64,000 nt of DNA from Escherichia coli (GTDB taxonomy: Bacteria; Pseudomonadota; Gammaproteobacteria; Enterobacterales; Enterobacteriaceae). Made by a program: the position numbers and the translations under genes. Each line of letters begins with the position of its first letter. Position 1 is the stretch's first letter. The stretch is from NCBI RefSeq assembly GCF_013315695.1, contig NZ_CP054353.1; one strand, given 5' to 3'. Of the stretch, positions 36,129-54,973 are shown piece by piece. A model generated the notes under the pieces. That model did no database searches, was not told where the DNA came from, and saw nothing but the letters and a program-made list of their open reading frames with translations.

Positions 36129-36427
36129 AATGGCTCACTCAAGCTTGCTCACGATTGATTCCAGTAACAAACCGTATTGTGTAATTATTTCTATAGCAGG
36201 TCGCTATATAGGATTGTATATATCGAATAATTTGAAAATCAAAGAGATAGGTAGATTTTCACTCGAAAGTAGTATTACGTGTAAGTGAGGAGTAATTATT
36301 GTTCGGTATCAAAGGGAGACAAAAAAAGCGCCCGCAGGAGATTTAACACACCTTACTCCCCTTGATGATTTACTTATTTTTCAATGACTAAATCAAAACA
36401 AGGGGAGCAAATTAACGCAAATTACAA
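36129..36427. promoter_or_regulatory. dmsA upstream region containing the presumed prophage attachment junction
   Basis: AT-rich 300-bp spacer between dmsA start and the 3' end of the phage integrase; segment AAAAAAAGCGCCCGCAGGAGATTT at about 36321-36344 partly resembles a P2-type att core as I recall it. Confidence 0.3.
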
Positions 36428-37420
36428 CTAGTCAATGGACAGTTTATGGACACTATCAGCCAGCGGATTAAAGCTAATCGCATCCTGTAAAAAGTCCGGT
36501 GAAAAATGCGCATACGTCATCGTTTGTTGAATCGTGGCGTGCCCAAGGATTCGCTGTAACGTAACGATATTTCCGCCGTTCATCATGAAATGCGTGGCGA
36601 ACGTGTGACGCATAACGTGAGTCGCCTGACCTTTGGGTAAATCCGGTTTCACCTCCTGAAGGATATCCCGAAAACGGATGTAATCAGCCTGGTACAATAG
36701 CCCGGTTTTTCGGGTTTTTATCAACGAAAGCACCGTATCAGAAACAGGAACCGCGCGGGATTTTCCATTCTTTGTGTTAAAGAACATTACGCGGTTACCA
36801 ACGATATGCTCACCACGTAAGCCAGCTGCTTCCCCCCACCTTGCGCCAGTGGAAAGACACAGAACAGCAACACGACGCGCATCCCCCTCGAGTCGTTCAA
36901 GCAGCCGATCAATCTCATCATCTGAAAGAAAGGCCATTTCTGTATTCCTGACCTTGAGCTTACGTATTCCACGCACCGGGTTTTCGTTATGGAAAACCTC
37001 CGCATCAATCAACGCAGTAAACATTGCAGACAAGGCGCACAAATCACGATTAACACTGGAGGGCATTAATCCGGCCTGTAATTTGTCTGAACGATACCCG
37101 AGCATAAACTTTCGCGTCATCTCACTGGCGCGGGGGTCCCTCATCTCACGGTTTATTTTTTCCAGCCTGACCCTGTAAGTATCCCCGTAAGGCTGATTCC
37201 GGCCATCAAGCACCCACCAGGCATCTATCAGTTCGGATAACCGACGCTGATCAGCTGGCTTGGCCTGCCACGGTTTATCGTGGAAATTCTGCAAAACATA
37301 CCTTTCAAACTCCTGTGCCTTTGACTTCAGGGTAAAAATCTTACGGATCCGCTTTCCTTCCGTCCCTTGCGGTCTTACATCAACCTTATAACGCCCGTCT
37401 TTGAGTTGCTTAATCGACAT
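36428..37420 (-). CDS. int: P2-type tyrosine integrase
   Basis: Start MSIKQLKDGRYKVDVRPQG; C-terminal tyrosine-recombinase catalytic motifs HVMRHTFATHF and LGHATIQQTMTYAH. Confidence 0.9.
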   Translation of the reverse strand: MSIKQLKDGRYKVDVRPQGTEGKRIRKIFTLKSKAQEFERYVLQNFHDKPWQAKPADQRRLSELIDAWWVLDGRNQPYGDTYRVRLEKINREMRDPRASEMTRKFMLGYRSDKLQAGLMPSSVNRDLCALSAMFTALIDAEVFHNENPVRGIRKLKVRNTEMAFLSDDEIDRLLERLEGDARRVAVLCLSTGARWGEAAGLRGEHIVGNRVMFFNTKNGKSRAVPVSDTVLSLIKTRKTGLLYQADYIRFRDILQEVKPDLPKGQATHVMRHTFATHFMMNGGNIVTLQRILGHATIQQTMTYAHFSPDFLQDAISFNPLADSVHKLSID

Positions 37421-37489
37421 GATTAGCCCCTCCAACGGATGAATCAGCCGTACACTCTCTACGGGATGAAACCCGCTCGATGTACAGCG

Positions 37490-37831
37490 TTAGCCAGCAT
37501 TGCGACGAGATCGGGGTGATTTTTGGGTAATGCCGATTGAAACCTGATCGCCCTCCGACTGAATGGAGCCATCAAGAGAGAGAGCCGGAGCTATCTGACC
37601 GGCAGCAGGCATTGTCTTATCTTTTATTAGCCACATCATGTATTTTTCAAACCGATCAACTTGGAGAACCATCTCAACAATTTTGGCTCTGGCGCTTTTT
37701 TGCCCTGATTCATAGTTCCTTATGGCAGCTAAAGACAACCCCGTAATATCCGCAAATTCCTTTTGCGTTAGCCCTTCAGCCTTGCGTATTTGACGTAGCT
37801 TTTTTGCATAGTCTATTGACAAGATAACCAT
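37490..37831 (-). CDS. P2 C-like immunity repressor (HTH)
   Basis: 113-aa ORF with HTH LTQKEFADITGLSLAAIRNYESG and GQIAPAL motif; adjacent to int in the same orientation. Confidence 0.75.
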   Translation of the reverse strand: MVILSIDYAKKLRQIRKAEGLTQKEFADITGLSLAAIRNYESGQKSARAKIVEMVLQVDRFEKYMMWLIKDKTMPAAGQIAPALSLDGSIQSEGDQVSIGITQKSPRSRRNAG

Positions 37832-37935
37832 TTGAGTATTAACCTCTCGCGAAAGATACTCGTGCGAGTATCTTTTATAAACCTAAACAAACCTTCATGA
37901 GGCGCGACAAGCGCACCAACGCAAGAGGATAGCAA
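37832..37935. promoter_or_regulatory. divergent lysogenic/early promoter switch region
   Basis: About 100-bp spacer between the divergent repressor and cox-like genes. Confidence 0.5.
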
Positions 37936-38460
37936 ATGCGGAAGTCAATTGCCGATAAAGAGTTATCTGACACACAAGCCCTTCAGGAAAACGACAGCAT
38001 CACCGAATCCGTTGGCGCGGCAAACGACGATGAACACCAAGAGGAAAAGAAAAAACGCACCTACAAAAAAGGGGCAACCTTGCGACTAGATGGCCCGGTA
38101 GCCGGACTTTGCTCACTTGAAAAAGGGGCAGCCTATATCGGGTTGACAAAAGCTGCATTGCGCGTGGCGCTTCAGCGAAATCAGATGCCTGGACACAAGA
38201 CCCGTTCAAACCCTGAAGATGAAAATTCGGATGGCGTGTGGTGGTTTAACGCCAGAGAGTGGGACAAGCTGGCTGACGAACTACCAGAATGCGAGCCGCC
38301 AGAATGGCACAACTGGAAAAGCTACTGGACATACGACCGACAGAAAAGAAAGTTTTCCCCGGCAAACAAAGAAGACTGCCAGACCATCAATGGAAAGCGG
38401 GTTTACACAGGAAGAAAGTCAAAACTGGAGCAACACCAATACAGTGGAGGCAACCAGTGA
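37936..38460 (+). CDS. Cox-like excisionase/regulator with N-terminal extension
   Basis: Region AAYIGLTKAALRVALQRNQMPG...DGVWWFNAREWDKL resembles the Cox HTH plus GEYWVY-type segment; true start may be internal. Confidence 0.5.
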   Translation: MRKSIADKELSDTQALQENDSITESVGAANDDEHQEEKKKRTYKKGATLRLDGPVAGLCSLEKGAAYIGLTKAALRVALQRNQMPGHKTRSNPEDENSDGVWWFNAREWDKLADELPECEPPEWHNWKSYWTYDRQKRKFSPANKEDCQTINGKRVYTGRKSKLEQHQYSGGNQ

Positions 38461-38544
38461 CATCAAAACAAACCGGCAACAGCGAAATCCCAGGAATGAG
38501 ATTTCGCCGCAGATGCTGTGGAAAATGGTTGTTATGCAAGCAGC

Positions 38545-38955
38545 CTACCAGGCTGATGGATGATCATCATCAATATCAAACACATTTCTGTAAAAACGAG
38601 AATGTTGCAAGGGATGAATAAGCGACCCCCAACAATCATAAATATCAGCCAGTTCGAACACATCGTATGAGAGATGTTGAGCAAACGATTCGGCACCTTC
38701 AAAAGACTCAAACACCTCATCATACAAGTGAATGTTTTCAGGATACGAAAGTGACAAGCAAAAACCAGACGTAGATTCCGTAACCAAGAAGACAAGGTGA
38801 TATTTATCATTCACCAGTGACTGAGCACATTTTTTTACAGAGCGAAGAATCACAGGGGAACGCGCGCCAATACGAAAGAGTTCTGCATGAGCACGGGCAT
38901 CAACAAAACTGTGAAACCCCTCACTTCTTGCAAGCTCACGTTCGGCAGCACGCAA
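38545..38955 (-). CDS. hypothetical protein, reverse-oriented inside the early operon
   Basis: 136-aa ORF on the opposite strand to the flanking early genes. Confidence 0.4.
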   Translation of the reverse strand: MRAAERELARSEGFHSFVDARAHAELFRIGARSPVILRSVKKCAQSLVNDKYHLVFLVTESTSGFCLSLSYPENIHLYDEVFESFEGAESFAQHLSYDVFELADIYDCWGSLIHPLQHSRFYRNVFDIDDDHPSAW

Positions 38956-39000
38956 AACCCAAAATCACCGCCCAGATTCGGATGTAAGGATAATTTTCAT

Positions 39001-39264
39001 ATGAATAAAGAGAAATCTCCGGATTATTTTGTGAAACGATTACAGGATGCAACAGAGTCAATGTTGATTGCCCTGAATAATTACTCTTACGAAGAGGCCG
39101 TAACGGTACTTGAGTGGATAAAGGAAAAAATAACGGAAGACAGCATCGTCAAGATGCAGAGTATCAACATCTCCCGTGACAAAACATTTCCACTGCGAAT
39201 ACCGCCAAAACGACGACTGGTTTACTCGATACCAGTCTCAATGCAGTGCAAATTGCCGAAATAG
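39001..39264 (+). CDS. hypothetical early protein
   Basis: 87 aa from MNKEKSPDYFVKRLQD with AAGGA Shine-Dalgarno upstream; divergent from 38545-38955. Confidence 0.4.
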   Translation: MNKEKSPDYFVKRLQDATESMLIALNNYSYEEAVTVLEWIKEKITEDSIVKMQSINISRDKTFPLRIPPKRRLVYSIPVSMQCKLPK

Positions 39265-39359
39265 TTTATGAGAAAACATAAATACTCCTTTGTGTGGTTG
39301 GTTATCGTTACAACAGTTCGGGCAAGAATTGCAAGGCGTAACGAAATTACCACAAAACC

Positions 39360-39761
39360 ATGCGCCGGGCATGGCTAAAAACCCGGCACAAATTCACAGC
39401 AGCAGTAGGGATTTTTATGAAGAAACCGGGAAATTTTTCACAGCAGAATTTTCGAACAAGTGCCGAACGCCACGTTGCACGCCAGCACTTCCGCAAAAAT
39501 AGTGCGACCACAACCACTGAAATCCATGCCACACCAGACGGTCACCCGGTAAAACAAACCGGCAAGCACACCTGGACGATTGGCGACACTGGCATCGTTA
39601 TTCACAAAAGTTTTCGCAGCCCTGTTACTGGCAGATTTAATTTCACCCTGACTCGCGGGGATGATTACTTCGGACAGGACTTCACATTTTTTGAAGCCTT
39701 AAGAACGGCAGACAGATTAATCAGCGGCCTGCGTTTTCAATATCCGGGAAGCAAGCACTGA
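39360..39761 (+). CDS. hypothetical early protein
   Basis: 133-aa ORF, start uncertain. Confidence 0.3.
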   Translation: MRRAWLKTRHKFTAAVGIFMKKPGNFSQQNFRTSAERHVARQHFRKNSATTTTEIHATPDGHPVKQTGKHTWTIGDTGIVIHKSFRSPVTGRFNFTLTRGDDYFGQDFTFFEALRTADRLISGLRFQYPGSKH

Positions 39762-39779
39762 TAAATAAAGGATTCAGCC

Positions 39780-40022
39780 ATGATCGAAGCCTACAAAATA
39801 CTTATCAATAACGCGTTGCAACGTTATCACTTTGAACTCGCAAACCGGGGCGTAACTAAGGATGAAAGCCTTCGTAACTCACTGCGCGGCGCAATTATGG
39901 GGCTATACAACTGCGCACTGGGCAGCGATGACCGTGAAGCGCTGGAAGAATTAAAGTCGATTATGACAGAACTGTTTGAAGGTGAAATTGTTGAGCCTTA
40001 CTTCACAGGGGTAGCCGCATGA
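39780..40022 (+). CDS. hypothetical early protein
   Basis: 80-aa ORF, stop overlaps the next start (ATGA). Confidence 0.45.
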   Translation: MIEAYKILINNALQRYHFELANRGVTKDESLRNSLRGAIMGLYNCALGSDDREALEELKSIMTELFEGEIVEPYFTGVAA

Positions 40023-40141
40023 GCATATTTCTTTCATGGGTAATTCTGATTATCTCCGTGCTTATGGCAATCGGCATTATGCGAATTATCTACACACTGA
40101 AGGATATCGAATTATTCTTTACCGGCGATAAACGCCGTAAA
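40016..40141 (+). CDS. small hydrophobic membrane peptide (41 aa)
   Basis: MSIFLSWVILIISVLMAIGIMRIIYTLKDIELFFTGDKRRK; translationally coupled start; below the ORF-track size cutoff. Confidence 0.35.
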
Positions 40142-40156
40142 TAAAGCGAAAACCTT

Positions 40157-40252
40157 ATGAAGAATGTAAAAGCAATACTCACCATCGCCACTGTATGGGT
40201 GATATTTCAGGTGAGTGCGCTTATCTGGTTAGCCCTGAAGATCTGGGAATAA
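40157..40252 (+). CDS. small hydrophobic membrane peptide (31 aa)
   Basis: MKNVKAILTIATVWVIFQVSALIWLALKIWE. Confidence 0.3.
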   Translation: MKNVKAILTIATVWVIFQVSALIWLALKIWE

Positions 40253-40333
40253 CCTGAAGCCGAAAGCAGGCGCGGAATAACACCAGAAAACACACGAGCA
40301 ATTAATTAAGGCATTCATGCCTTCGGGTTCCCT

Positions 40334-40588
40334 TTGTCTTTTTTCAGGAGTCAACAAATGAGAACAGCCGAATCACCCGGCAGAAAAATAACCGCCAGAC
40401 CAGCTAACCATCATGCACATATCAGCATTGCCGCAAGAAAAGCCGAGCGTGCGCATATCTGCGAATTGCTGCATGACCTGGTTAACACAGCGAGAGAGAA
40501 GCACACCTCCCCGGAGGAAACCTGTTCATCCATTGAACGACTGATTGCAATACTCGCCAACCCAGACGAACTGAAGGGGTGCGCATAA
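40334..40588 (+). CDS. hypothetical early protein
   Basis: 84-aa ORF, stop overlaps the exonuclease start. Confidence 0.35.
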   Translation: MSFFRSQQMRTAESPGRKITARPANHHAHISIAARKAERAHICELLHDLVNTAREKHTSPEETCSSIERLIAILANPDELKGCA

Positions 40589-41169
40589 TGAACCATCTCA
40601 TGATTGACACCGAAACACTGGGTAACGGACCGGACGCAGCCATATTCACGATTGGGGCGGTGTTTTTCGACCCGTTCACCGGAAAGCTGGGCAAGCAGTT
40701 TGAGAAATTCATCGACCCGGTGGATTCAGAACGCAACGGCGGAACCGTCAATGCAGCCACCGCTGTATGGTGGGCCGGACAATCCGTGGAAGCCAGAGCC
40801 TGCCTGCGCAACGCAGATGGAACAGAGCTGGCAGCAGTGACCGAATTTCTGGCGTTCATTTCACGCAATATGCATGACGAAAGCCCGGGCAATTCACTGA
40901 ACATATGGTGTAAGGGCGCATCCTTCGATTTCCCGATCCTGAAATCCGCCATAACACGCACAGCCGGAGAAAAAAGCATCCCCTGGTGCTACTGGAACGA
41001 GCGCTGTATGCGCCCGCTTATCGCCATGGCTGAATCAACTGGATGGAAAATGCCAGGCAGATCAGGCAAAGAGACCATTGCTCACACCGCGCTGGGCGAC
41101 GCCGTTTACCAGGCAAAGGTCGTGTCAGAAATCTGGCAGCGCTTCACAACACCATTCCTGAACATATGA
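40579..41169 (+). CDS. DnaQ-like 3'-5' exonuclease
   Basis: 196 aa, Exo I motif MIDTETLG near N-terminus and later HTALGDAV. Confidence 0.7.
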   Translation: MRIMNHLMIDTETLGNGPDAAIFTIGAVFFDPFTGKLGKQFEKFIDPVDSERNGGTVNAATAVWWAGQSVEARACLRNADGTELAAVTEFLAFISRNMHDESPGNSLNIWCKGASFDFPILKSAITRTAGEKSIPWCYWNERCMRPLIAMAESTGWKMPGRSGKETIAHTALGDAVYQAKVVSEIWQRFTTPFLNI

Positions 41170-41402
41170 GGTGAAGCCATGGTCGCCATCCTGAATGTGT
41201 GTTGCTGCCCCCCCCTGAACGTGGAAAGAAAAGCCCGCGCATCGCTGCGTTTATTCCGCGACGGCGTGCGGAATTTTTCACGCATAAAACCCCACGACTA
41301 CCTGGTAATAAGAATCGGTTTTCGCTGGCGATTGCTGAGCAAAAACAACGGGGCGTCATGGGATTTATTAACGCACGAAACCTATAACAAAGAGGCCGCG
41401 TT

Positions 41403-42347
41403 ATGAGCAAAGAACTGTTATCCGGCACGCCGCTTAAATGGGTGGGCGGAAAAAGTCGCATCATGAACACACTGAAGGCGCATCTGCCAGAAGCAGACTG
41501 CCTGGTTGAGCCGTTTGTGGGTGGCGCATCGGTATTCATGAACACCAGTTACAAGCGTTACATCCTGGGTGATTCCAATGGTGCGCTGATTAATTTCTAC
41601 CGGCAAGCCAGGGACAACACCGACAGCCTGATCGACGAGGCGAAAACCCTGTTCCTGAACCACAACAACAGGGGTGACTATCTCATCATTCGCGAAACCT
41701 TTAACGCAGAGAATCATGCCTTCCTGAACAGCAGAACGGGAATAAGCGACCGCCGTGAACTGCGACTGGCCGCCATGTTTTTGTACCTGAACCGACACAG
41801 CTTTAACGGTTTGTTCCGCGTGAACGGAAAAGGCGATTTTAACGTGCCTTTCGGCTGCTACCGCAAGCCCTACTTCCCTGAGCGTGAAATCCGCGCATTT
41901 GCAGACAAGGCAAACAGCACCCGAACGCTGCTTATCCACGCAGATTTTAAGGATACGCTGAACTCTGCCAGTCACCTGTTCGGCATGGGCAACACGCTTT
42001 GCGTGTACTGCGATCCCCCTTACCTGCAATTCAGTGGCCGGGACAATTTTACCGCCTACGGAAAACCATTCGATGAAGACGAGCACGTTCGTCTGAGGGC
42101 AGCGCTCGACCGCCTTTCACAGGAAACGGGCGGCATGACCAGCATCACCATCTCCAATTCCGACACACCGGAAACACGACGCATTTATCGGGGTTACCGG
42201 ATGAACTGCATACAGGCACCACGAAGCGTTGGCGCAAGAACCCGGGAATCAGCACCGGAGGTTATCGCCACCCTGAGATGCATCACATCCGCCTTATCAA
42301 CGGTTCGCACTTCTGCGCCACGAACATGGAAGAAGTACGCGTGCTGA
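41403..42347 (+). CDS. dam: DNA N6-adenine methyltransferase (Dam-like)
   Basis: 314 aa with CDPPY catalytic motif and FVGGASVF SAM-binding region. Confidence 0.85.
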   Translation: MSKELLSGTPLKWVGGKSRIMNTLKAHLPEADCLVEPFVGGASVFMNTSYKRYILGDSNGALINFYRQARDNTDSLIDEAKTLFLNHNNRGDYLIIRETFNAENHAFLNSRTGISDRRELRLAAMFLYLNRHSFNGLFRVNGKGDFNVPFGCYRKPYFPEREIRAFADKANSTRTLLIHADFKDTLNSASHLFGMGNTLCVYCDPPYLQFSGRDNFTAYGKPFDEDEHVRLRAALDRLSQETGGMTSITISNSDTPETRRIYRGYRMNCIQAPRSVGARTRESAPEVIATLRCITSALSTVRTSAPRTWKKYAC

Positions 42348-42375
42348 CAGCAACACGCAATACGGGAGGTAAAGC

Positions 42376-42726
42376 ATGGCAGTGATTTATATCGCCGGTC
42401 CCATGACCGGATGCAAAGACCACAACAGGACGGCATTTTGCGTGGAGGACCTGAAACTTCGGTGCGCCGGAAACATCGTTCTTAATCCTGCCGTACTGCC
42501 TGACGGATTAAGCCAGCAGCAGTACATGAGTATTTGTATTCCGATGCTCATGTGCGCCGATGCCATTTACTTACTGGATGGATGGGAAGAGTCCGCTGGC
42601 GCACGGGCTGAGTACGCAATGGCGCTCAAACTGAACATGCATGTGTCATTCCCGGAAAACCGGGCAGCCGGCGAAACCGTCGCGCAGCTGCTTCACAAAT
42701 CAAAAGCCGCACAGGCGACTGAGTAA
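42376..42726 (+). CDS. nucleoside 2-deoxyribosyltransferase-like / DUF4406-like small protein
   Basis: 116 aa starting MAVIYIAGPMTG (Rossmann-like YxAGP motif). Confidence 0.45.
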   Translation: MAVIYIAGPMTGCKDHNRTAFCVEDLKLRCAGNIVLNPAVLPDGLSQQQYMSICIPMLMCADAIYLLDGWEESAGARAEYAMALKLNMHVSFPENRAAGETVAQLLHKSKAAQATE

Positions 42727-43164
42727 CCGACCGGAGATCGAAACATGATTGCGCGCAGAGCTACCAACCGTCTCACAGGCTTTATTCCAGGCAAGGTTGA
42801 TCATGCACTCCATCACGGGGCTGTCACTTTCCTCAACAAAGGAGAGGCGCGCAATCATGCATTCCGGGGTGAGCATGTGGCGCTGGCTAATCAGTCTTTG
42901 ATAGCTAAGCGCCTGCCATTCAGCCTTTTCAGCTCTGATAGAAAGAGAGGAAGCCATGACCTGCCACACCAGAAAGAGCACCACACTGGCGAAAACAAAC
43001 GTTGCGCTGTCGCAAAAAATGAATGCGGCAACAATCGCAAGGAAAGCGCTAATCCTCAGAACCAAGGAAGCGCGACGGTGGAGAAGGCTTGTCATGTGTT
43101 CAAGCCAGTAGCTGTACCACAGGTCAAAAAGAATTTCGTAATCAGAAGGGAGCTTATCACTCAT
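42700..43164 (-). CDS. hypothetical membrane protein, convergent with the dam module
   Basis: About 154 aa from MSDKLPSDYEILFDLWYSYW with two hydrophobic helices; start lies 16 bp from the left edge of the tandem repeat. Confidence 0.4.
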   Translation of the reverse strand: MSDKLPSDYEILFDLWYSYWLEHMTSLLHRRASLVLRISAFLAIVAAFIFCDSATFVFASVVLFLVWQVMASSLSIRAEKAEWQALSYQRLISQRHMLTPECMIARLSFVEESDSPVMECMINLAWNKACETVGSSARNHVSISGRLLSRLCGF

Positions 43165-43547
43165 CAGAAACACCCCGCGTATGCAGACAATCACCAGTTG
43201 CCAGGTGATATTAATTCGCAACATTCTAACCACATCAGCACGCAACACAAAAACCGCTTGCCAGCGCTCGTCGTGTCAGGTTACATTTCCGCTGCACCTC
43301 ATAAAACGGGTGCCGGGTTTCGCAGCCTGCTGACAACCAAAGCGCACAACCGCGCCAGCGGTTTTTTTGTGCGTACTGTATTGCCACGTCTTTTTCGCGT
43401 CAGAATTATGGCGGGGCGTACGGGGCCGACTTCGGTCGGGCCGGGTTCTTTGCTAGCCGGTACTGCGAACCTCGTACGTCTCGCCACCCACAGTTTCGCA
43501 GCTCTGGATGGTGAGTTTTCACAACTTACTAGCAAAGAGGCCACACC

Positions 43548-43769
43548 ATGGCAAACCGCAAGCAACAGCGCGCCCGCGCTGAGCGTCTTCACATCCGCAG
43601 CGAAATCAACCGCAGACTTTTCCGCGCAACACGCGTCGCGCAAATCATGCATATCAACATGCTGCATGAGCGCACGCACGCACTATCAAACCGTTACTGC
43701 GCTGCTGTCTTCAGCTATCTCGCCGAAGATCTGGCAGAACTGCAAAGCCTCATCAACCAGCACCGATAA
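43548..43769 (+). CDS. small basic protein (73 aa), copy 1
   Basis: MANRKQQRARAERLHIRSEINRRLFRATRVAQ..., AAAGAGG Shine-Dalgarno; identical copy at 44377-44598. Confidence 0.45.
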   Translation: MANRKQQRARAERLHIRSEINRRLFRATRVAQIMHINMLHERTHALSNRYCAAVFSYLAEDLAELQSLINQHR

Positions 43770-43837
43770 ACCACATCCGGAAGCTATCCCACACCTGCAC
43801 GCGGGAGGCTTCCGCACGTCTGTTACCGGAGGTTCTC

Positions 43838-44008
43838 ATGAAGAGCGTTAAGGGACTTTCAGATATTCAGGACTTCTTTAACTGGATGTGGGCGGTGGAT
43901 CCCCTGCTGGCTTCCCGCCTGAACAACTGGCACGACTATTACCGCCGCGCCTGTAAACAGGCTGCCCGCAGCGTCACCACATACGGGGCTTTCTCCTTCA
44001 CCGTTGAC
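43838..44008 (+). pseudogene. 5'-truncated duplicate of the 138-aa pre-A gene
   Basis: First 57 codons match 44667-44837, then the frame runs into repeat unit 2. Confidence 0.5.
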
Positions 44009-44837
44009 TATGCAGACAATCACCAGTTGCCAGGTGATATTAATTCGCAACATTCTAACCACATCAGCACGCAACACAAAAACCGCTTGCCAGCGCTCGT
44101 CGTGTCGGGTTACATTTCCGCTGCACCTCATAAAACGGGTGCCGGGTTTCGCAGCCTGCCGACTAGCAAAGCGCACAACCGCGCCAGCGGTTTTTTTGTG
44201 CGTACTGTATTGCCACGTCTTTTTCGCGTCAGAATTATGGCGGGGCGTACGGGGCCGACTTCGGTCGGGCCGGGTTCTTTGCTAGCCGGTACTGCGAACC
44301 TCGTACGTCTCGCCACCCACAGTTTCGCAGCTCTGGATGGTGAGTTTTCACAACTTACTAGCAAAGAGGCCACACCATGGCAAACCGCAAGCAACAGCGC
44401 GCCCGCGCTGAGCGTCTTCACATCCGCAGCGAAATCAACCGCAGACTTTTCCGCGCAACACGCGTCGCGCAAATCATGCATATCAACATGCTGCATGAGC
44501 GCACGCACGCACTATCAAACCGTTACTGCGCTGCTGTCTTCAGCTATCTCGCCGAAGATCTGGCAGAACTGCAAAGCCTCATCAACCAGCACCGATAAAC
44601 CACATCCGGAAGCTATCCCACACCTGCACGCGGGAGGCTTCCGCACGTCTGTTACCGGAGGTTCTCATGAAGAGCGTTAAGGGACTTTCAGATATTCAGG
44701 ACTTCTTTAACTGGATGTGGGCGGTGGATCCCCTGCTGGCTTCCCGCCTGAACAACTGGCACGACTATTACCGCCGCGCCTGTAAACAGGCTGCCCGCAG
44801 CGTCACCACATACGGGGATTTCTCCTTCACCGTGGAC
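44009..44837 (+). repeat. tandem duplication, unit 2 (829 bp)
   Basis: See unit 1. Confidence 0.85.
44377..44598 (+). CDS. small basic protein (73 aa), copy 2
   Basis: Identical translation to 43548-43769. Confidence 0.45.
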   Translation: MANRKQQRARAERLHIRSEINRRLFRATRVAQIMHINMLHERTHALSNRYCAAVFSYLAEDLAELQSLINQHR

Positions 44838-45083
44838 GGTCGTTACCGCGTGGACGTGAAAGGTGATGGTGATGGACTGGGTTTATTTCACATCAACGGC
44901 ACCGACAGTACCGCCATCAGCTGGTCGTCATCAGAGATGGCGCTGGTTCTGGAAATGACAACCCACAGCGTGGCCGTGAAAGGTATATACACCGCAGAAG
45001 GTTTTATCGGCGAATACCAGCGCCTTCTCGTGCTGTACCGCGCGGCGTTTCAGGTGGCAACTGCCGGGGAGTGCGACGCATGA
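44667..45083 (+). CDS. hypothetical protein immediately upstream of gene A
   Basis: 138 aa, GGAGG Shine-Dalgarno, stop overlaps the A start. Confidence 0.5.
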   Translation: MKSVKGLSDIQDFFNWMWAVDPLLASRLNNWHDYYRRACKQAARSVTTYGDFSFTVDGRYRVDVKGDGDGLGLFHINGTDSTAISWSSSEMALVLEMTTHSVAVKGIYTAEGFIGEYQRLLVLYRAAFQVATAGECDA

Positions 45084-47593
45084 GCGACCATAACGCACAA
45101 CTGGCGTACCCGTGGAACGCCCCGCTACCGGTTATCGATCCTGAAACGTTCGGCAGAGCACAGCCAACCGCATTACGCCAGGCCATTCAGAGCTACATCA
45201 ACGAGGACATTCGCATTGATGCCAGACTGGATGAAGAAACCGTCGCCTTTCTGACAACCACAGACGAAGGGAAGCGAATTAATTCGCACCTTCACCACAA
45301 CGAAGAGCGTCGGATCAGACTGGAAAAACTGGCGCGGCACAAACGCGAGAATCCGCCCACGGTGGTATCGGAAGCCATGGCAGAACTTCGCGCCCTGCCC
45401 TCGTTTCTTGGCAACGCGCTCATTCGTGATCTGGCGCGTTTAAACCGCAAACAGCAAAGCGCCCGCCATGAAGGCGTGAAAAACAACAATACACACGTGG
45501 CTGATAACTTTGTTCGCCGTGGACTGCGCACACGCCTGAAACGCATCGAACAGGTGAATGAATGCTTCGCCACGACGGCATTCAAAGCCACCGCAGCACG
45601 CCATCGCCTTGATGAATTACTCATGCTGCCACAACTCAACCGTGATCAAATTCAGCGCCTTGCCACACTAACGGCGGCGGCATTTTCCACCGAACTGGAA
45701 CGCATATGTGATGAAGTTACTGAGCGGACAGGAAAAGGCGACGATAACCTGTTTACCTGGTTGCTGACTTACCAGCAGCTGGCGCGCATGGCAATAAAAC
45801 TGGGCGTGAACCCACCATACTGGCCGTCACTCGAGATCAGACGTGACCGCCGCACGGCACCAGACCCTGAACTGGTACCGGGCGCGGTAATGCGTATCAC
45901 CTGCGCCACCTGGTGGAACAACCAGCTGCGCCACCTCGCTGATCTCTGGCGGGAGGAATTACTGCGTGCCGCCGGAAGAGTATCGCGCAAGGCATCCCCC
46001 TACATCAGCCATGAGTCACTCCAGGAATTCCGGGAGAAACGCCAGCGCACCCGTGATTTTCTCAAAAGCTGGGACATTGAAAACGAAGACGGTGAACGCC
46101 TGAGCCTGGAGGACGTGTACTGGTCAGGGCTGGGGAATCCGCGCAACCGCCGCAACGAGATGATGGCCTGCGTCAGAGGGATGGAACAGGTCGCCGAATC
46201 GCGTGGTGACTCCGCGTTCTTCGTGACAGTGACCTGCCCTTCCCGCTTTCACAGCGTAAACGAGGACGGCAGCCTGAACCCGAAATACAACGGTGCCACC
46301 GTGCGCGATGCCAGTGATTATCTGGTTTACGACGTCTTTGCAGCTGCAAGAAAAAAACTCAACAAAGAAGGCCTGAGCTGGTACGGGGTGCGCACCGTTG
46401 AGCCACACCATGACGGCACACCGCACTGGCACATGCTGGTATTCACCGCCCCGGACAATGAAGAACGCATCATTGAAATCATGCGTGACGCAGCAATCAA
46501 ATCAGATCGCGCAGAACTGGGGAATGATATTTCTCCGCGCTTCAAGTGCGAAAAAATCGACCCGGCAAAAGGCACACCGGCAAGCTACATCGCAACCTAT
46601 ATTGGCAAGAACCTGGACGCCAGCACCTTTCACGACAATGACCCGAAAACCGGCAAACCTTACGCCGATAAAGAATCGGGAAAAACCATGGCGGAAACCG
46701 TGGAAAACGCCATTGCCTGGGCGAGTCTCCACCGCATCCGGCAGTTCCAGTTCTTCGGTATCCCGCCCCGCCAGGTATGGCGTGAACTCCGCCGCCTTGC
46801 CGGACAAATGGAGCGTAACCCCGCATCACCGAAGCGCCTGGACCATGACGACATTGACGCCATTCTGGCCGCCGCTGACGTGGGGTGTTTTGCCACCTAC
46901 ATCAACCGTCAGGGCGGCGTGCTCATTCCACGCAACCTGTACCTGATCCGCACCGCATACGAAACCGCAGATGAGGCCAACGACTACGGCGAATTCCCGC
47001 AGCGCATCTACGGAATTTGTGCCCCGTCGCTCGGCGAGCGCTACACCATCTGCACCCATCCGGACGAGTGGAAACTGGTCAGAAAAGAAGCGAAAGCCGA
47101 CAACAGCACGGACGAGGATTTTGACGTTGGGGGCGGCTTCGCCGCACCTTGGACTCGTGGCAATAACTGTCGCCATGATGAAAAAACAGACACCGAAGAG
47201 GGTAAAAACCCACCACCGGAAACCAGGAAAGAACAAAAACTGGTCGTCCCGGAAGGTGATTTGGGCGAGTGGTTAAGGTCACTGACCCCCACAGAGCGAA
47301 AACAACTCACCAGGCAGCTGAAAGATGCGCCATCTGACACAAAAACCGTGAAAACCGGCGGCCCCACCACGCCCGATGACGTCATACATGTGCGTACCGC
47401 ATTGCCGCTGGCTGACGTCACCACCACCGTGATCAAGTCGGCACTGAGCACGACGGGCGAGGAGCTGCACAGTGGCGCGGCACTTTCCGTACACAGAGGT
47501 GCACGCGTTCGCCTGCCTGACGGGCGGATTGTGCACTGGGATGAGAAATCACGAAGCCTGGTGGCAGCAGATCAACCGGAGGTGAACCCATGA
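45071..47593 (+). CDS. P2 gpA-like rolling-circle replication initiator
   Basis: 840 aa with HUH-type motif HHDGTPHWHMLVF. Confidence 0.9.
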   Translation: MRRMSDHNAQLAYPWNAPLPVIDPETFGRAQPTALRQAIQSYINEDIRIDARLDEETVAFLTTTDEGKRINSHLHHNEERRIRLEKLARHKRENPPTVVSEAMAELRALPSFLGNALIRDLARLNRKQQSARHEGVKNNNTHVADNFVRRGLRTRLKRIEQVNECFATTAFKATAARHRLDELLMLPQLNRDQIQRLATLTAAAFSTELERICDEVTERTGKGDDNLFTWLLTYQQLARMAIKLGVNPPYWPSLEIRRDRRTAPDPELVPGAVMRITCATWWNNQLRHLADLWREELLRAAGRVSRKASPYISHESLQEFREKRQRTRDFLKSWDIENEDGERLSLEDVYWSGLGNPRNRRNEMMACVRGMEQVAESRGDSAFFVTVTCPSRFHSVNEDGSLNPKYNGATVRDASDYLVYDVFAAARKKLNKEGLSWYGVRTVEPHHDGTPHWHMLVFTAPDNEERIIEIMRDAAIKSDRAELGNDISPRFKCEKIDPAKGTPASYIATYIGKNLDASTFHDNDPKTGKPYADKESGKTMAETVENAIAWASLHRIRQFQFFGIPPRQVWRELRRLAGQMERNPASPKRLDHDDIDAILAAADVGCFATYINRQGGVLIPRNLYLIRTAYETADEANDYGEFPQRIYGICAPSLGERYTICTHPDEWKLVRKEAKADNSTDEDFDVGGGFAAPWTRGNNCRHDEKTDTEEGKNPPPETRKEQKLVVPEGDLGEWLRSLTPTERKQLTRQLKDAPSDTKTVKTGGPTTPDDVIHVRTALPLADVTTTVIKSALSTTGEELHSGAALSVHRGARVRLPDGRIVHWDEKSRSLVAADQPEVNP

Positions 47594-47994
47594 CACGATT
47601 CCATTGCGTACTCCAGCGCCATGATTTCAGCACCATCATGAGTGGACGCATTCCGGCACTGACGCTGAGCGGCGTCAGTGTTCGGCCACAGCCAGGCGAC
47701 GAACTGGAGATCACGATCGCAAACCCCGATCGCAGCACAGATACCGTCATGACCGACATCCTGACTGCAAGAATCAACGCCGACAGAAGCGCATTCATCG
47801 TTGCCGTGCGTCCTCGTCGCGCCATATCAGAGCCTGAACCACTGACCCCCGTCGGAAAAATCATGCAGGCATACCACGAAAAACAGACCAGAAAACTCAA
47901 TGAAGAGCTGGCAAGAACGTTGGCCGTCGTTAACCGAAAAGCGGCAATTGCCCGCTATGTGCATTCAGCCGCCAACAGGCAATCACGCAGGTAA
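47590..47994 (+). CDS. hypothetical protein
   Basis: 134-aa ORF, translationally coupled to A. Confidence 0.4.
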   Translation: MTRFHCVLQRHDFSTIMSGRIPALTLSGVSVRPQPGDELEITIANPDRSTDTVMTDILTARINADRSAFIVAVRPRRAISEPEPLTPVGKIMQAYHEKQTRKLNEELARTLAVVNRKAAIARYVHSAANRQSRR

Positions 47995-48003
47995 CAAAAG
48001 ACC

Positions 48004-48213
48004 ATGAACATGACCAAAAACACCAAACTGAAGGAGCACACCATGAACGACATCAGGAAGATCAGCGACAAAGACCTGAAGAAAATGATTGAGTCGGCGC
48101 AGCAGCTGCTCTCACGACGAAATCCGGTTGTGGAAGAAACATGGTGGGAAAATTTACTGGCAGCGCTGACCGAACTCCGCGAACGCCGGAACAACGAAGG
48201 AGCTGCCAAATGA
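48004..48213 (+). CDS. hypothetical small protein
   Basis: 69-aa ORF; stop overlaps the next start. Confidence 0.35.
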   Translation: MNMTKNTKLKEHTMNDIRKISDKDLKKMIESAQQLLSRRNPVVEETWWENLLAALTELRERRNNEGAAK

Positions 48214-48548
48214 AGACACCCAGAATGACCGGAAAGGAAATCATTTTACGCTACCTGAAAACGCACGCACGCTTCAGCGCACCAGAGCTGGTTGAAAAAC
48301 TGGGCGTGAAAAGGACCGTCATTAATCAGGCTGCCGGAAAGATGGTGCGCGAAGGGCTGCTGGTTGTGGATGGGTACACGGACAAGATAACGCATTACCG
48401 GAAGCCAACGAAAAAGGAGCTGCGGGAGCTGAAACGACGGGCAGAATGGCAACAGGAGCCGTCAGTAATTGAAGCCTGCAAGCGCAGCGAAATCATGAAG
48501 AGAATTCTGTTTATCTACGGCGCTGGCGAAGAGCTGCCCGTCATCTGA
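48210..48548 (+). CDS. putative winged-helix DNA-binding protein
   Basis: 112 aa from MKTPRMTGKEIILRYLKTHARFSAPELVEKLGV. Confidence 0.45.
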   Translation: MKTPRMTGKEIILRYLKTHARFSAPELVEKLGVKRTVINQAAGKMVREGLLVVDGYTDKITHYRKPTKKELRELKRRAEWQQEPSVIEACKRSEIMKRILFIYGAGEELPVI

Positions 48549-48580
48549 ACCCAACAATAAAACCAACACGGGAGACAAAT

Positions 48581-48898
48581 ATGCCAACACAGGTTGCAAC
48601 AGAGGGACGACTGGCAGCAGACCCGAACACAAGGAGAACAGCCAAAGGTACCAGCGTCACAACAGCACAACTGGCGGTATCACTACCCTGCCATGGCGCA
48701 GAACAGCCAACCACAATGTGGCTTTACCTTATCGCGTTCGGGAAGCAACACGAAGAACTGGCAAAACACAGAAAAGGCGATCTGATCCTGGTGCACGGGA
48801 ACTTGCAGGTAAACAGGTATCAGGACAAGTACGAGCAACAGAAAGAGGGCTGGCAGCTGCTGACGCAAAGCATTATCAGCTCAAGAACCGGGCGATGA
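48581..48898 (+). CDS. short SSB-like OB-fold protein
   Basis: 105 aa; pattern GRLAADPNTRRTAKGTSVTTAQLAV...WLYLIAFGKQHEELAKHRKGDLILVHGNLQ resembles the SSB N-terminal OB-fold without a C-terminal tail. Confidence 0.45.
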   Translation: MPTQVATEGRLAADPNTRRTAKGTSVTTAQLAVSLPCHGAEQPTTMWLYLIAFGKQHEELAKHRKGDLILVHGNLQVNRYQDKYEQQKEGWQLLTQSIISSRTGR

Positions 48899-48947
48899 CT
48901 TCACGCATGTTACCCTCAGCAGCGAGGGTAACACAGGATTTCTTTTT

Positions 48948-49592
48948 TCAGTCAAACCGAAATCGGCCGCTTGTCGCGTATGCATAGGTGACCACCGCAC
49001 CCAGCGCATTCACACGCTTCTTCACATAAATCACATTACCATCCTGATAGTCACCGTATGGGTAGCAAATAAAGATTGTTTTTTGCAAATCAGGATCATC
49101 AACAAATGCCCCTGAACAACTTTTTGAGCTACCGCGACTGTACTCATAGGGAGCGGAATAGAATGAATCTTCACCCGGAAGAAAATATATCAGCGTAACC
49201 AGGAGGGTAAACAGAATCATCCAGGTAAGAAGGCACATACCCGAAAAAAACTTAAGATACGATGTAACCCCGGTAAATTTAGACCGATCAACCAGGTTCT
49301 TTTTCAACAGGCACAGTGAGACAAAAACCGAAAGCACCACAGACACTGAAACAAGGCAGTTTGTCGTGAACGAATAAAGGTAGGTAATTCTGTAAACATC
49401 GTTTCGCCACCAAATAAAAAGAAAAATCCCCCCCAAAACAGAAAGCGTGACAAAAGTTAAATAAGGATATGAGTAATTTTTCACAGTTCTCACCCGGCAA
49501 TACACCACTGATTCAGACAGATGATTATCATCACCACCCACCCCCAAAAATCGCAAGATAAAAAATGCACAAAAGCGCACGAAATTGCACAA
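48948..49592 (-). CDS. hypothetical multi-pass membrane protein at the tin/old-equivalent position
   Basis: 214-aa ORF on the opposite strand, AT-rich, several hydrophobic helices. Confidence 0.45.
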   Translation of the reverse strand: MCNFVRFCAFFILRFLGVGGDDNHLSESVVYCRVRTVKNYSYPYLTFVTLSVLGGIFLFIWWRNDVYRITYLYSFTTNCLVSVSVVLSVFVSLCLLKKNLVDRSKFTGVTSYLKFFSGMCLLTWMILFTLLVTLIYFLPGEDSFYSAPYEYSRGSSKSCSGAFVDDPDLQKTIFICYPYGDYQDGNVIYVKKRVNALGAVVTYAYATSGRFRFD

Positions 49593-49987
49593 TTTTTCTT
49601 ATGTGTTTCATCCCCATTCAGCCCAGTAACGGCGCTGGCTGAGGCCGGTTTGCACGGTGCACGAAAAACGAGGCAATTGCAGCGCGCAGGCGACGAGGGA
49701 AGGGCGCCCGAATTGAGGGGTGGAAGGCAGGTTGCTTTATTTGGGGTCGTATTGCGCGTGATACGCACGCAGTGAAGCCGGTTCTGAAAAAACCACACCG
49801 AAACAGAGTCAGAAAAACAGGCCGCCAGAATGCGTCTGGTTGAGTTTTACGGGGTCGGGATTAAATGCGGAAACATCACACCGCAGGCATGACGCGAAAA
49901 AGAGAAAAACCACAGCAAAACATAATGTTAAATGTTATTGATGAGTTGAGAAGCGAGAGGTGTATTGCGTTGACAGAGCTGGAGAGT
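49593..49987. other. noncoding segment expected to contain the phage cos / packaging site
   Basis: In P2 cos lies between the old end and Q; GC-rich motif GGCGACGAGGGAAGGGCGC at about 49688 resembles the P2 cohesive-end sequence as recalled. Confidence 0.3.
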
Positions 49988-50012
49988 CGGGGCATAAATT
50001 TTTTATGCCCCG
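49988..50012 (-). terminator. palindromic hairpin downstream of Q
   Basis: CGGGGCATAAA-TTT-TTTATGCCCCG. Confidence 0.45.
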
Positions 50013-50038
50013 GCGAAGCAGCCGACAAGCGAAGCGCG

Positions 50039-51082
50039 TCAGCTGGCGTTATCCTGAAGCAACGCATAGGGGTTAAAGCGCATTACCTCGCTTCCCAGCC
50101 ATTCATTGACATGCTTCATGGCCTCCATGACAGGTTGCAGCTCGTTGATGAAAAACACCCTCGCCGCTTTCTCAACGTCACCGAGCGCCGCGTTCCCGTC
50201 AGGCATTGCCCCCATCAGCTGAGGCGGTACACGGTGAGCCGCAAGGATATCGTCACGGGCGGTACCCTTGATGTTAAGGAATTCGTCCTTCGCGGTGATT
50301 TGCTGGAACGGCAGTATTTGCACACCATCCTTGCCGCCACCTGGCGCGTGCAGAAGGATATTGCGGAACGCCCCCTTGCCACGGGATTCCGTGAGGGTTT
50401 TCTTTACCGCCTCCACGCTTTCAGCGTTTGCCTGGGCGGCCCCGACATAGACAATGCACCCGGCATGTGAGCCGTTGTCATAGTAGAGCTTGCGGAACGT
50501 GTCCGCCGAGTTCGACAGGCTCACCGACAGCAGCCCACCGATATACTCCGGCATCCCGTAGATTTCCTGGTTGATATCAGGGTTCAGAACATGGCACACA
50601 GCCCCCTTCCGGAACGCGAATTCAGAACCATCATCATTGAGGTACCAGTACGTATCGAGATCACTGCCCCGCCGCGTGTATTTCGCCAGCGCCGGGCGGA
50701 GCGCAATGGGCTCACCGAACCTGTTACGGCGCACCTCAAGATAGGCATTACCGAACACAAACCAGTCGAGTGCAAACGCTGAAAACGCCTGGCGGGACAG
50801 GAGCGGATGAGGAACAAAGCACCCGTTCAGGGCGTTGCGCTTAAAATACAGGGCCGACTGGTGCCATGACGCACGACGGGAGGCGCGAGCAATGGCGTTC
50901 CAGTCCATGGGGGTGTCATAGTAGCGGCCATTATCGGCGCACGACATATTATCAAGAAGATCAAGACGGCTTGCTTCATAAGGACCGTCAAACGTGAAAG
51001 CACTGAGTGACGGCGCTGATTTCAGTGCATCGGCCAGTGAGCCCGTGCCGCGCTTTCCGGTGTATTTTTTACGTTTACTCAT
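50039..51082 (-). CDS. P2 gpQ-like portal protein
   Basis: 347 aa, leftward, paired with the terminase gene. Confidence 0.85.
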   Translation of the reverse strand: MSKRKKYTGKRGTGSLADALKSAPSLSAFTFDGPYEASRLDLLDNMSCADNGRYYDTPMDWNAIARASRRASWHQSALYFKRNALNGCFVPHPLLSRQAFSAFALDWFVFGNAYLEVRRNRFGEPIALRPALAKYTRRGSDLDTYWYLNDDGSEFAFRKGAVCHVLNPDINQEIYGMPEYIGGLLSVSLSNSADTFRKLYYDNGSHAGCIVYVGAAQANAESVEAVKKTLTESRGKGAFRNILLHAPGGGKDGVQILPFQQITAKDEFLNIKGTARDDILAAHRVPPQLMGAMPDGNAALGDVEKAARVFFINELQPVMEAMKHVNEWLGSEVMRFNPYALLQDNAS

Positions 51083-51087
51083 TGTGT

Positions 51088-52821
51088 TCAGAACTCCATT
51101 GCAAAGCCACGATTATCCTCACGCTCTGCGCCGATTGGCTCATTGATAACAGCAAGCATGGTTGCCCAGGCGAGATCACCATGACTGACACCCCGGGAGC
51201 GGTCAGTGTCATAGGTGATATAGCCGCCGGGCGTCTGTATTTTTCGCACCGATGAAAATGCCTGTATCAGGTCGCGTTCGCTGCGGTCATACTCCCACCG
51301 TCCGGCGCGGACCACCTGAAGCATCTTCATGACCAGCGCCCGTTTGGACGCGATATTGAAGTTGTACGGAACAGCCAGGGGGAAGAGCTTTTTCACAATC
51401 TGATAAACCCCTTCGCCGTTACCACCGGTCACATCAATACCAATATGTTTCACGTTATATTTCTTCGTGTACTCCTCGATCAGGGCAGCTTGTTGTTCAA
51501 ACTCCATACCCTGAACCCTGACTGTCTCCACCGTGCGAAAACGCCCACCGGCAACAAGGGGTGGCACGCACACCGACAGCGCCCCGCAGTCCCCTTTCCC
51601 GCTGCTGCCGTTGGCATCATAGCCAAGCCAGACCTCCCGAACGCCCATCGGACGGGACGCAAAAGGTTTCCAGTCAGGCCATTCATCGTAACCATCCACG
51701 CCGCAGCCGATGAGCGCATTCAGGCTGAAGGCCGCCTCACCATCACGGACAAATTCGCACATGTACAGATTGCGAAATTCACTTTCTGTATTCTCATCGC
51801 GAATATCATCAATACTGGTGAACTGCCATCCGTTAGCGACAGCATCCTCGATAGTGACAATCTGCCGCCACGTTTTATCGGGAAAGAGCACGCCCCCCTT
51901 CAGGTGGGCATGTGAAACATCAAATTCATTGCGTTTTGAGCGCGGCCGCTCGCTGTTCCAGCGGTCCCCTGTCCAGAACTGATACGCCTCATGCGTCTCA
52001 CCTGACGGCGTAGAGAAGTAAGTGCGCGTAAGCCCTTTCAGCGTCGCCATTGCCCCGGCAACCTTCCTGAGGTTCACAAAGTTACTGACCCAGAAAAATT
52101 CGTCGAATTTCAGATGACCGGTATAGGACTGCGCGGTGGCAGCTGACGTACCGAGGAAGTGCAGCTCGGCACCGTTGGACAGCACAATTTTGTCGCCGCC
52201 TTTGAGCTCAACATCCACCTCCTGAGCAGCCTGCTGAATGAAATGCTTGAACTGATACGCCTGACGACGGGAGGCGGACAAAAATATCTGGTTGCGCTGA
52301 TACCCGGCGGAGACATCATCACGCAGTGCATCAAGGAGCGCCTCGCGCGCAAAATACCAGGTCGCACCAATCTGACGCGACTTCAGGATCATGCGGTTGC
52401 GGTGGTGGCGGTTTTCGTACCATTCGCGTTGATGCCAGGCCAGTGACGGCAGGATTTTTTCCCTGAGCGCAGCAATCTGTTCTTCGGTGAAGTGATTTTT
52501 CAGTCTGCGTTTACGGGGCTTTTTACCGGAAACGGCATGCTCTCCCTGACTGTCATTCAGTTTTTTCAGCTGGCGCGTGAGAAGGTCAATTTCCTTAAAA
52601 TCGCTGCCGCTTTTCTCTGTTTTTGTGGTGAGCTGGATGAGGCGCGCATCAATGGACTGGGTGACCCGCTGGATCGGGGGGGTGGCATCCCACTCATCGC
52701 GTTTTTTCCATGAGTAAATCGTGTTCTGGCTGATCCCCATCAGTTGCGAGATTTCCGCAGGCGTGTACCCTTGCCAGTAAAGTTGTCTCGCTCCTATGCG
52801 GACAAATGCATCCTGAATCAT
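51088..52821 (-). CDS. P2 gpP-like terminase ATPase subunit
   Basis: 577 aa, N-terminal HTH MIQDAFVRIGARQLYWQGYTPAEISQLMGISQNTIYSW. Confidence 0.9.
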   Translation of the reverse strand: MIQDAFVRIGARQLYWQGYTPAEISQLMGISQNTIYSWKKRDEWDATPPIQRVTQSIDARLIQLTTKTEKSGSDFKEIDLLTRQLKKLNDSQGEHAVSGKKPRKRRLKNHFTEEQIAALREKILPSLAWHQREWYENRHHRNRMILKSRQIGATWYFAREALLDALRDDVSAGYQRNQIFLSASRRQAYQFKHFIQQAAQEVDVELKGGDKIVLSNGAELHFLGTSAATAQSYTGHLKFDEFFWVSNFVNLRKVAGAMATLKGLTRTYFSTPSGETHEAYQFWTGDRWNSERPRSKRNEFDVSHAHLKGGVLFPDKTWRQIVTIEDAVANGWQFTSIDDIRDENTESEFRNLYMCEFVRDGEAAFSLNALIGCGVDGYDEWPDWKPFASRPMGVREVWLGYDANGSSGKGDCGALSVCVPPLVAGGRFRTVETVRVQGMEFEQQAALIEEYTKKYNVKHIGIDVTGGNGEGVYQIVKKLFPLAVPYNFNIASKRALVMKMLQVVRAGRWEYDRSERDLIQAFSSVRKIQTPGGYITYDTDRSRGVSHGDLAWATMLAVINEPIGAEREDNRGFAMEF

Positions 52822-53814: not shown

Positions 53815-53829
53815 CAGAGGAACAAAATC

Positions 53830-54924: not shown

Positions 54925-54973
54925 CGCATCATGGCGGGCACATGCGCCCGCCGGTTAATCAGGAGTCGAACAC

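Follow-up and report, generated by a model that had tools for sequence, protein, structure and literature searches.

Attachment site of a P2-family prophage at the serS terminator upstream of dmsA in Escherichia coli

The attachment system of phage lambda combines a heterobivalent tyrosine integrase (Int) with core-type and arm-type sites in the phage attachment site (attP), bending by integration host factor (IHF), and a directionality factor for excision. Systems of the P2 type are alike in all of these respects, but they have one IHF site, paired direct repeats in each arm, and Cox instead of Xis; their attP is placed 3′ of int, a gene transcribed together with that of the repressor. The subject of this work is a P2-type element in Escherichia coli, a prophage whose integrase-proximal end faces the host gene dmsA within a 64,000-nucleotide stretch of contig NZ_CP054353.1 (hereafter the window). 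A literature search on an attachment site between serS and dmsA found no paper describing such a site.

Terminators of small RNA (sRNA) loci are already known as phage targets, an example being PhiW104 at ryeB in Salmonella (PMC7380047). According to the summary given there, PhiW104 attaches not in a tRNA gene but at the last bases, forming the terminator, of an sRNA locus that is transcribed from both strands, and its lysogeny alters the transcript of one partner, ryeA/ryeB (Balbontin et al. 2008, via PMC7380047). The serS-dmsA site is of the same kind. For ryeA and ryeB, however, the sRNAs have been verified and their changes in expression measured, whereas the sRNA locus at the site considered here, STnc130, is putative.

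The window from position 36339 onward is read here, at a probability of roughly 90%, as the integrase-proximal end of a P2-family (Peduoviridae) prophage of ~38-39 kb that was inserted between serS and dmsA by Int-mediated recombination into a terminator hairpin. A prophage junction is an ordinary finding in itself, and the modest twist is the lineage-specific loss of an insulating hairpin upstream of dmsABC.

The junction with the host and the terminator hairpin

Almost all of the 5,426 complete E. coli genomes searched with window segment 35600-37500 match its first 739-745 bases only, that is, up to window 36338-36344, and homology to the ~5,000 prophage-free genomes ends at 36338, or at 36344 if two mismatches are tolerated. 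When the search is made with the distal junction, at the other end of the prophage, homology to the empty site begins exactly at the A-run of the attachment core. The serS-dmsA gap of MG1655 measures 238 bp and has the sequence ...GGTATCAAAGGGAGACAAAAAAAGCGCCCGCAGGCGCTTTTTAGATTCAG..., after which comes the stop codon of serS; the window is identical to this gap up to ...GCGCCCGCAGG and then continues with AGATTTAACACACC.

The shared core has 16 bp, AAAAAGCGCCCGCAGG, and all 16 positions agree between the empty bacterial site (attB), the window junction and the distal end of the prophage in MSB1_4I, a lysogen collinear with the window. Of a bidirectional terminator serving serS and STnc130, the core takes up the A-run, one arm of the stem, the loop, and two bases (GG) at the start of the second arm. 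In the window it occurs once, with a chance expectation of 0.04 even when up to two mismatches are allowed, and no second copy was found within the 64 kb. In MSB1_4I it stands at both prophage ends, 38,484 bp apart, and the far copy belongs to the ogr/hok side, where the junction reads ...AACATAATGCAAAAAGCGCCCGCAGGCGCTTTTTAG.... The GG of the core and the first phage-specific bases together form GGAGATTT, an 8-mer that also ends the annotated attP core of P2 (NC_001895). Strand exchange would take place inside the 16-bp core or at its edge. Excision would be expected to yield attB as AAAAAAAGCGCCCGCAGGCGCTTTTT and attP as …ATAATGCAAAAAGCGCCCGCAGGAGATTTAAC…, and the distal junction is predicted to read ...GCAAAAAGCGCCCGCAGG joined to CGCTTTTTAG and then the serS stop codon, past hok/ogr, ATGGACGTTATATGGACA and an IHF-like site.

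The original prediction, made on the window alone, had proposed a P2-family prophage about 300 bp upstream of dmsA, with the integrase 3′ end abutting the dmsA upstream region and no tRNA gene nearby. Its family assignment is borne out by P2 hallmark genes above their Pfam cut-offs and by an integrase 56% identical to P2 Int, and its arrangement agrees with the positions of the open reading frames (ORFs) and with ARAGORN, which found no tRNA or tmRNA gene in the 64-kb window and so rules out a tRNA gene as the target. The location upstream of dmsA was right as well, though not the distance: the host-phage junction lies 210 bp upstream of the dmsA ATG, and ~300 bp is the span from the integrase stop codon to that ATG. 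The candidate core named at 36321-36344 (AAAAAAAGCGCCCGCAGGAGATTT) takes in the 16-bp core together with six bases of the phage, and the prophage-free genomes place the junction inside it, at 36338-36344. A repeat had been expected at the other prophage end, where MSB1_4I indeed carries the core. The further claim that the core lies next to the int 3′ end as in P2 accords with the attP rebuilt below, which aligns with the attP features of NC_001895.

The first host gene downstream of the junction is dmsA, and the gap between it and the P2-type integrase gene, both on the minus strand, corresponds to window 36129-36450. Above curated cut-offs the window holds the Pfam families Phage_GPA, Phage_portal, Terminase_6N, Terminase_6C, Terminase_5, Phage_GPO, Phage_cap_P2, Phage_term_smal and Baseplate_J, with scores well clear of those limits; they represent the replication protein gpA, the portal Q, the terminase P, the scaffold O, the capsid N, the small terminase M and the baseplate protein J. 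Genes follow the P2-family order, in which P2 itself is arranged: att, int, the C repressor with a divergent cox, then the early genes. The prophage continues beyond the window end at 64000, and the ogr/delta late activator and the gene D end would lie past that point; they are present in MSB1_4I, which carries a complete P2-like prophage of 38.5 kb between serS and dmsA. This lysogen is collinear with the window to 64000; of the four segments that align, three have identities of 99.0-99.8% and one of 95.9%. The far prophage end should lie ~11 kb past 64000, near window-equivalent 75,150.

The target itself is the intrinsic terminator AAAAAAAGCGCC-CGCA-GGCGCTTTTT between serS and dmsA. In the serS sense attB folds at -16.3 kcal/mol (ViennaRNA) into a hairpin of 10-11 bp followed by a U-run, and the hairpin appears symmetrical enough to work both ways. 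After integration it is complete on the serS side because the phage supplies the missing half; this junction folds at -17.2 kcal/mol, with a stem of 10-11 bp and five U. On the dmsA side it is broken because of two A-for-C differences (AGATTT for CGCTTT), and no such hairpin folds at that junction. These values come from ViennaRNA folds, used in place of a consensus terminator scan that overlooked the serS terminator in the empty site, its rule counting the U-run into the stem.

An integrase adjoins dmsA in 344 of the 5,426 genomes (~6%). The exact 74-bp junction of the window is found in 12 genomes, or 16 with related versions, and ~326 show identities in the range usual for the P88 type. Two other terminator hairpins, in S19-651 and JNEC-KY179, are occupied by phages whose integrase differs from that of MSB1_4I at a single residue (99.7% identity). 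These loci are the terminator after the lysine-tRNA operon, by nadA, and the rraA terminator, by zapB. Both targets are hairpins made up of an A-run, a GC-stem, a 4-nt loop and a T-run, and in both the phage is joined as ...AGG followed by AGATTT; for rraA the empty site was reconstructed exactly. The apparent exchange point at all three target sites lies at or beyond 36336-36338. The phages of S19-651 and JNEC-KY179 each have two hok/gef genes at the ogr end.

The integrase module and its attP

The integrase is 55.6-55.9% identical to P2-group integrases, and its motifs GARWGE, HxxRH, LGH and TYAHF (with the catalytic tyrosine) all align with those of P2 Int, giving the full R..K..HxxR..H..Y set. 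A C-like repressor gene with a helix-turn-helix (HTH) domain lies upstream of int in the same orientation, so that a Pc-type transcript would run through C, int, the junction and dmsA. The repressor homologue in ON470599 is annotated ‘immunity repressor protein GpC’, and the same-position counterparts of the divergent cox-like gene as ‘Cox family DNA-binding protein’ or ‘regulatory phage protein cox’. Compared with MSB1_4I, the immunity region (37490-37935) is mosaic: residues 1-80 of the repressor differ at 31 positions and the operator palindrome differs, but identity reaches ~99-100% in int, in att and at the C-terminus of the repressor. The prophage looks like a heteroimmune variant of the MSB1_4I phage.

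The attP was rebuilt by joining the phage sides of both junctions and was aligned to the feature-annotated P2 record NC_001895. A second record labelled ‘Peduovirus P2’, NC_070906, was dropped as reference, its core being different. The rebuilt site matches that of P2 element by element, from the ogr-side terminator through the P arm, an IHF-like site, the core and an arm of ~96 bp to the P′ arm. The P arm reads ATGGACGTTATATGGACA here and GTGGTCAATGTGTGGAC in P2; in three genomes the distal arm has the ogr-side pair ATGGAC(G/A)...ATGGACA, in MSB1_4I in the form ATGGACGTTATATGGACA. Nearly identical IHF regions follow (AAATAAATTCCTTTTATTTTCAATTAATT here, AATAAATCCTTTTATTTCAATTTATT in P2). The IHF-like site TTTCAATTAATTA, read in related genomes only, has one mismatch to the consensus WATCAANNNNTTR and falls within a stretch near-identical to the annotated P2 IHF site. 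On the integrase side, the pair of P′ sites lies 9 bp from the integrase stop codon and overlaps the 3′ end of the integrase coding sequence (CDS), the same arrangement as in the annotated Int P′ arm of P2, CTGTGGACACTGTGTGGACAC. The two arm pairs are 174 bp apart, the spacing found in a P2-group phage record. The integrase-proximal arm holds an inverted repeat, CTCCCCTTG (36356-36364) and CAAGGGGAG (36399-36407), and a direct repeat, GCAAATTA, at 36407-36414 and 36417-36424. Cox boxes common to this arm and the C/cox operator were sought, but the two 7-mers recovered were unconvincing. The Int/att module is of the P2 type: every defining feature that could be tested was found, and the roles of IHF and Cox are presumed.

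Coordinates of the features around the prophage junction (window positions, unless another stretch is named)
Feature	Position	Strand	Evidence
dmsA CDS, 814 aa	33684..36128	-	ORF list; RefSeq annotation of matching DNA in MG1655 and MSB1_4I
ModE-like palindrome CGCTATATA-N6-TATATATCG, dmsA leader, host DNA, retained	36201..36226		sequence
STnc130 match (Rfam RF02084), antisense to dmsA promoter; terminator stem is the att hairpin	36219..36353	+	126.1 bits
Inferred dmsA P1 transcription start	36264	-	FNR box centre and -41.5 spacing
FNR box TTGATaccgAACAA, class II dmsA promoter, intact, 26 bp inside host side of junction	36299..36312	-	one mismatch to TTGATNNNNATCAA
att core AAAAAGCGCCCGCAGG	36323..36338		sequences, folds, end of empty-site homology
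First phage-specific bases AGATTT (attB: CGCTTT)	36339..36344		junction comparison
Integrase-proximal attP arm, core to P′ sites; position of the Cox boxes in P2	36345..36434		repeat search; P2 alignment
P′ arm-type Int sites, two ATGGACA (36435, 36446), 11 bp start to start	36435..36452		sequence; P2 annotation of like arrangement
Tyrosine integrase, P2 Int family, 331 codons including stop	36428..37423	-	Pfam Int_N 97.7 bits, Phage_integrase 71.9 bits
HTH immunity repressor (C-like), upstream of int, co-oriented	37490..37831	-	Pfam HTH_3
Perfect palindrome AAAGATACTCG-TG-CGAGTATCTTT, candidate operator between repressor and cox-like gene	37852..37875		sequence
cox-like gene, 174 aa, divergent from repressor	37936..38460	+	Pfam Phage_Cox, below cut-off; annotated counterparts
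Remaining prophage: early/replication, portal, terminase, scaffold, capsid, lysis, first tail and baseplate genes	38461..64000		Pfam; collinear with MSB1_4I to 64000
Core copies of P88/ST131-type prophages	2483-2502 and 41137-41156 of retrieved stretch L008; near 2596 in L003 and L004		

The early region of the prophage contains a tandem duplication with a unit of 829 bp (43180-44008 and 44009-44837; the first 300 nt are 99% identical), which copies several small ORFs; MSB1_4I has a single copy, and the length at this place varies among other relatives. Between the lysis and tail genes, an ORF of 645 aa (57952-59889, plus strand) encodes a cargo protein with a DUF1737, an SASA (sialate O-acetyl) esterase domain and a DUF6645, an architecture that resembles the NanS-p esterases of Stx prophages. 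The same ORF is found in the P88-type prophage. At its distal end, the MSB1_4I prophage carries a Hok/Gef family toxin gene (783-923 of the retrieved stretch) between ogr and att, adjoining serS and followed by strong hairpins of its own.

The dmsA promoter and competing readings

The host side of the junction retains a palindrome in the dmsA leader that is a putative ModE site by its likeness to the consensus. Relative to MG1655, window 36199-36228 has three host single-nucleotide differences within this palindrome that give it greater symmetry (TATATA...TATATA). The empty-site strain KOr019 matches the window at 99.5%. The FNR box, centred at 36305.5, is the only such site in 36129-36460. 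It is presumably the dmsA FNR site reported by Bearson et al. 2002. For dmsABC an FNR site at -41.5 has been described (PMC3688515), and relative to the start derived from this spacing the core extends from -59 to -74 and the junction falls at -74/-75. The FNR box, the inferred -10 and start, and the ModE-like palindrome are all on the host side, and beyond -75 the empty site has the other hairpin arm and serS only. Nothing known to control dmsABC thus appears to be displaced, and because the sites for FNR, RNA polymerase and a ModE-type regulator are untouched, anaerobic activation should be preserved. The original prediction that the insertion could alter FNR control finds no backing in a displaced cis element; the route that would be left to it is read-through after loss of the dmsA-side hairpin. 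The only plausible regulatory consequence would be a repressor-integrase transcript reading into the dmsA promoter region, or any STnc130 transcript reading into int.

Several observations weigh against reading the junction as the product of Int-mediated insertion into the hairpin. The distal junction of the studied genome is beyond the window and was taken from related lysogens, the best-matching of which is 98.6% identical over the first 9.7 kb of the prophage. By comparison with the empty site, the nadA junctions are a single nucleotide short, lacking one G of a G run. The Phage_Cox match (E=1.4e-5, 25.3 bits) is under the cut-off of 27.5, no Cox boxes were identified in the integrase-proximal arm, which has no similarity to those of P2, and the dmsA start follows from the -41.5 spacing. 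Free attP was found neither in the phage collection, where the sole match was a P88-type integrase-side arm, nor in metagenome contigs; a search of IMG/VR with an attP-specific pattern gave no free circular form, and a looser pattern gave one further lysogen junction. The attP sequence is therefore a reconstruction. This absence, together with the 829-bp duplication, would suit a defective remnant whose junction is fixed host sequence and not a working att site. Such a remnant is unlikely. The integrase has its full length and keeps the catalytic residues, and in MSB1_4I a near-identical prophage possesses the whole P2 gene set with an att junction at either end. Near-identical integrases at three loci, moreover, imply recent mobility. 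Within the preferred reading of Int-mediated insertion, the extent of the core is less firm. Wherever attP and attB differ to the left of AGG, the junctions at the secondary sites keep the difference together with its left flank, which fits poorly with a 6-8 bp overlap in the core. Repeated at three independent target sites, this pattern would agree with a functional core that is a longer, imperfect stretch, 36321-36344 (~22-24 bp with two mismatches), with exchange right of AGG in the mismatched part. The 20-bp identity of the P88-type relative also runs rightwards through CGCTTT, GGAGATTT is common with the P2 core edge, and the length would be comparable to the 27 bp of P2. Even so, overlap-region mismatches usually impede tyrosine recombinases, and phage AGATTT and host CGCTTT are swapped in no junction examined, although heteroduplex segregation should swap some. 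The longer core is a tentative proposal that retains some chance of being right.

Two further alternatives concern the host transcripts. Full-length alignment to the STnc130 model (positions 1-135) gives 126.1 bits in the window and 140.1 in the empty site of MG1655, against a gathering score of 55. The terminator stem of the match coincides with the core; in the window two of its eight pairs are not canonical and UUUAAC stands in place of the U-tail, whereas MG1655 and the P88-type lysogen have an unbroken stem. The relevant target could therefore be the 3′ end of an sRNA gene, which lysogeny would disable or extend, and PhiW104 offers a precedent in the last 23 bp of ryeB, where it alters ryeA/ryeB expression (PMC7380047). 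STnc130, attributed to Salmonella, is however recorded only as a ‘putative sRNA, dmsA’ (PMC3632133). Its model extends over both the promoter of dmsA and the terminator of serS, and conservation of each has a separate cause. The family may thus not represent a real RNA, and the match would serve as a label rather than as proof of one. Moreover, the same hairpin is the serS terminator anyway, and a related integrase uses terminators with no sRNA link, such as that of rraA. An sRNA gene as the relevant target is accordingly improbable. The other alternative is that the insertion materially changes dmsABC regulation, a constitutive lysogenic Pc-C-int transcript entering the dmsA promoter and causing FNR-independent (aerobic) expression or occlusion of P1. 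C, int and dmsA are co-oriented, and no terminator-like site was found in 36000-38100. The hairpin is lost in this phage lineage only; the commoner P88/ST131 type keeps it in full on the dmsA side with a run of seven U, so that the lineages differ exactly here. In the opposite direction, every mapped cis element of dmsA is preserved, transcripts might be stalled or processed at a strong 13-bp stem in their path (36356-36407), and Rho-dependent termination is possible in the untranslated 89 nt after int. Expression of P2 int in lysogens is low, which also counts against read-through. A material change in regulation is on balance doubtful, if somewhat less so than an sRNA target. More speculative still, and quite improbable, is that AGA-for-CGC (36339-36341), two bases away from the P88 type, is functional, opening the dmsA-side terminator and joining phage and host transcription. 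If this were true, repressor-integrase transcripts would enter the dmsABC promoter controlled by FNR, NarL and ModE, and STnc130-strand transcription from an anaerobically regulated region would enter int. Integrase supply and excision would then respond to oxygen, and dmsABC would gain an oxygen-independent basal level.

Comparison with P2 and with P88/ST131-type prophages

For annotation, the analysis gives an exact boundary for a prophage site that recurs in E. coli and is occupied in ~6% of complete genomes, with the bidirectional terminator of serS and STnc130 as attB, which is neither a tRNA gene nor dmsA regulatory DNA. For host physiology, the insertion leaves the sites for FNR, a ModE-type regulator and RNA polymerase at dmsABC untouched, and the regulatory question narrows to the loss of the dmsA-side hairpin, confined to this lineage. 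For phage biology, the locus provides a P2-type integrase that targets intrinsic-terminator hairpins throughout, at its primary site and at the secondary ones.

Phage P2 (NC_001895) is alike in its integrase, with 56% identity and the same catalytic motifs, and in the position of attP between ogr and the int 3′ end. Each arm has two direct arm-type repeats 11 bp apart, the IHF region in the ogr-side arm is near-identical, GGAGATTT stands at the core edge, and the P′ arm overlaps the int stop codon. Both phages also use several chromosomal sites with partial core identity, in P2 attB locI and the secondary loc sites. The core, however, has 16 bp and lies in the serS terminator here, whereas P2 has a 27-bp core at locI. 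In addition, the Cox-like protein is double the size of Cox in P2, nothing in its arm resembles the P2 Cox boxes, and a hok/gef gene is present between ogr and attP (in the MSB1_4I prophage).

Prophages of the P88/ST131 type (ON470599, ON470623, PV468777 and the TUM13881 chromosome) occupy the same serS-dmsA attB, with an integrase 87% identical and the order int-C-cox. They differ in a 20-bp core, AAAGCGCCCGCAGGCGCTTT, that spans the whole hairpin. As a result, the full terminator is kept on the dmsA side, and the serS side has a hairpin with only three U. This type is ~20 times commoner, with ~326 genomes compared to 12-16 for the lineage of the window. Together the two form a natural pair of 87%-identical integrases with the same attB and shifted cores, which offers material for the study of drift in core specificity.

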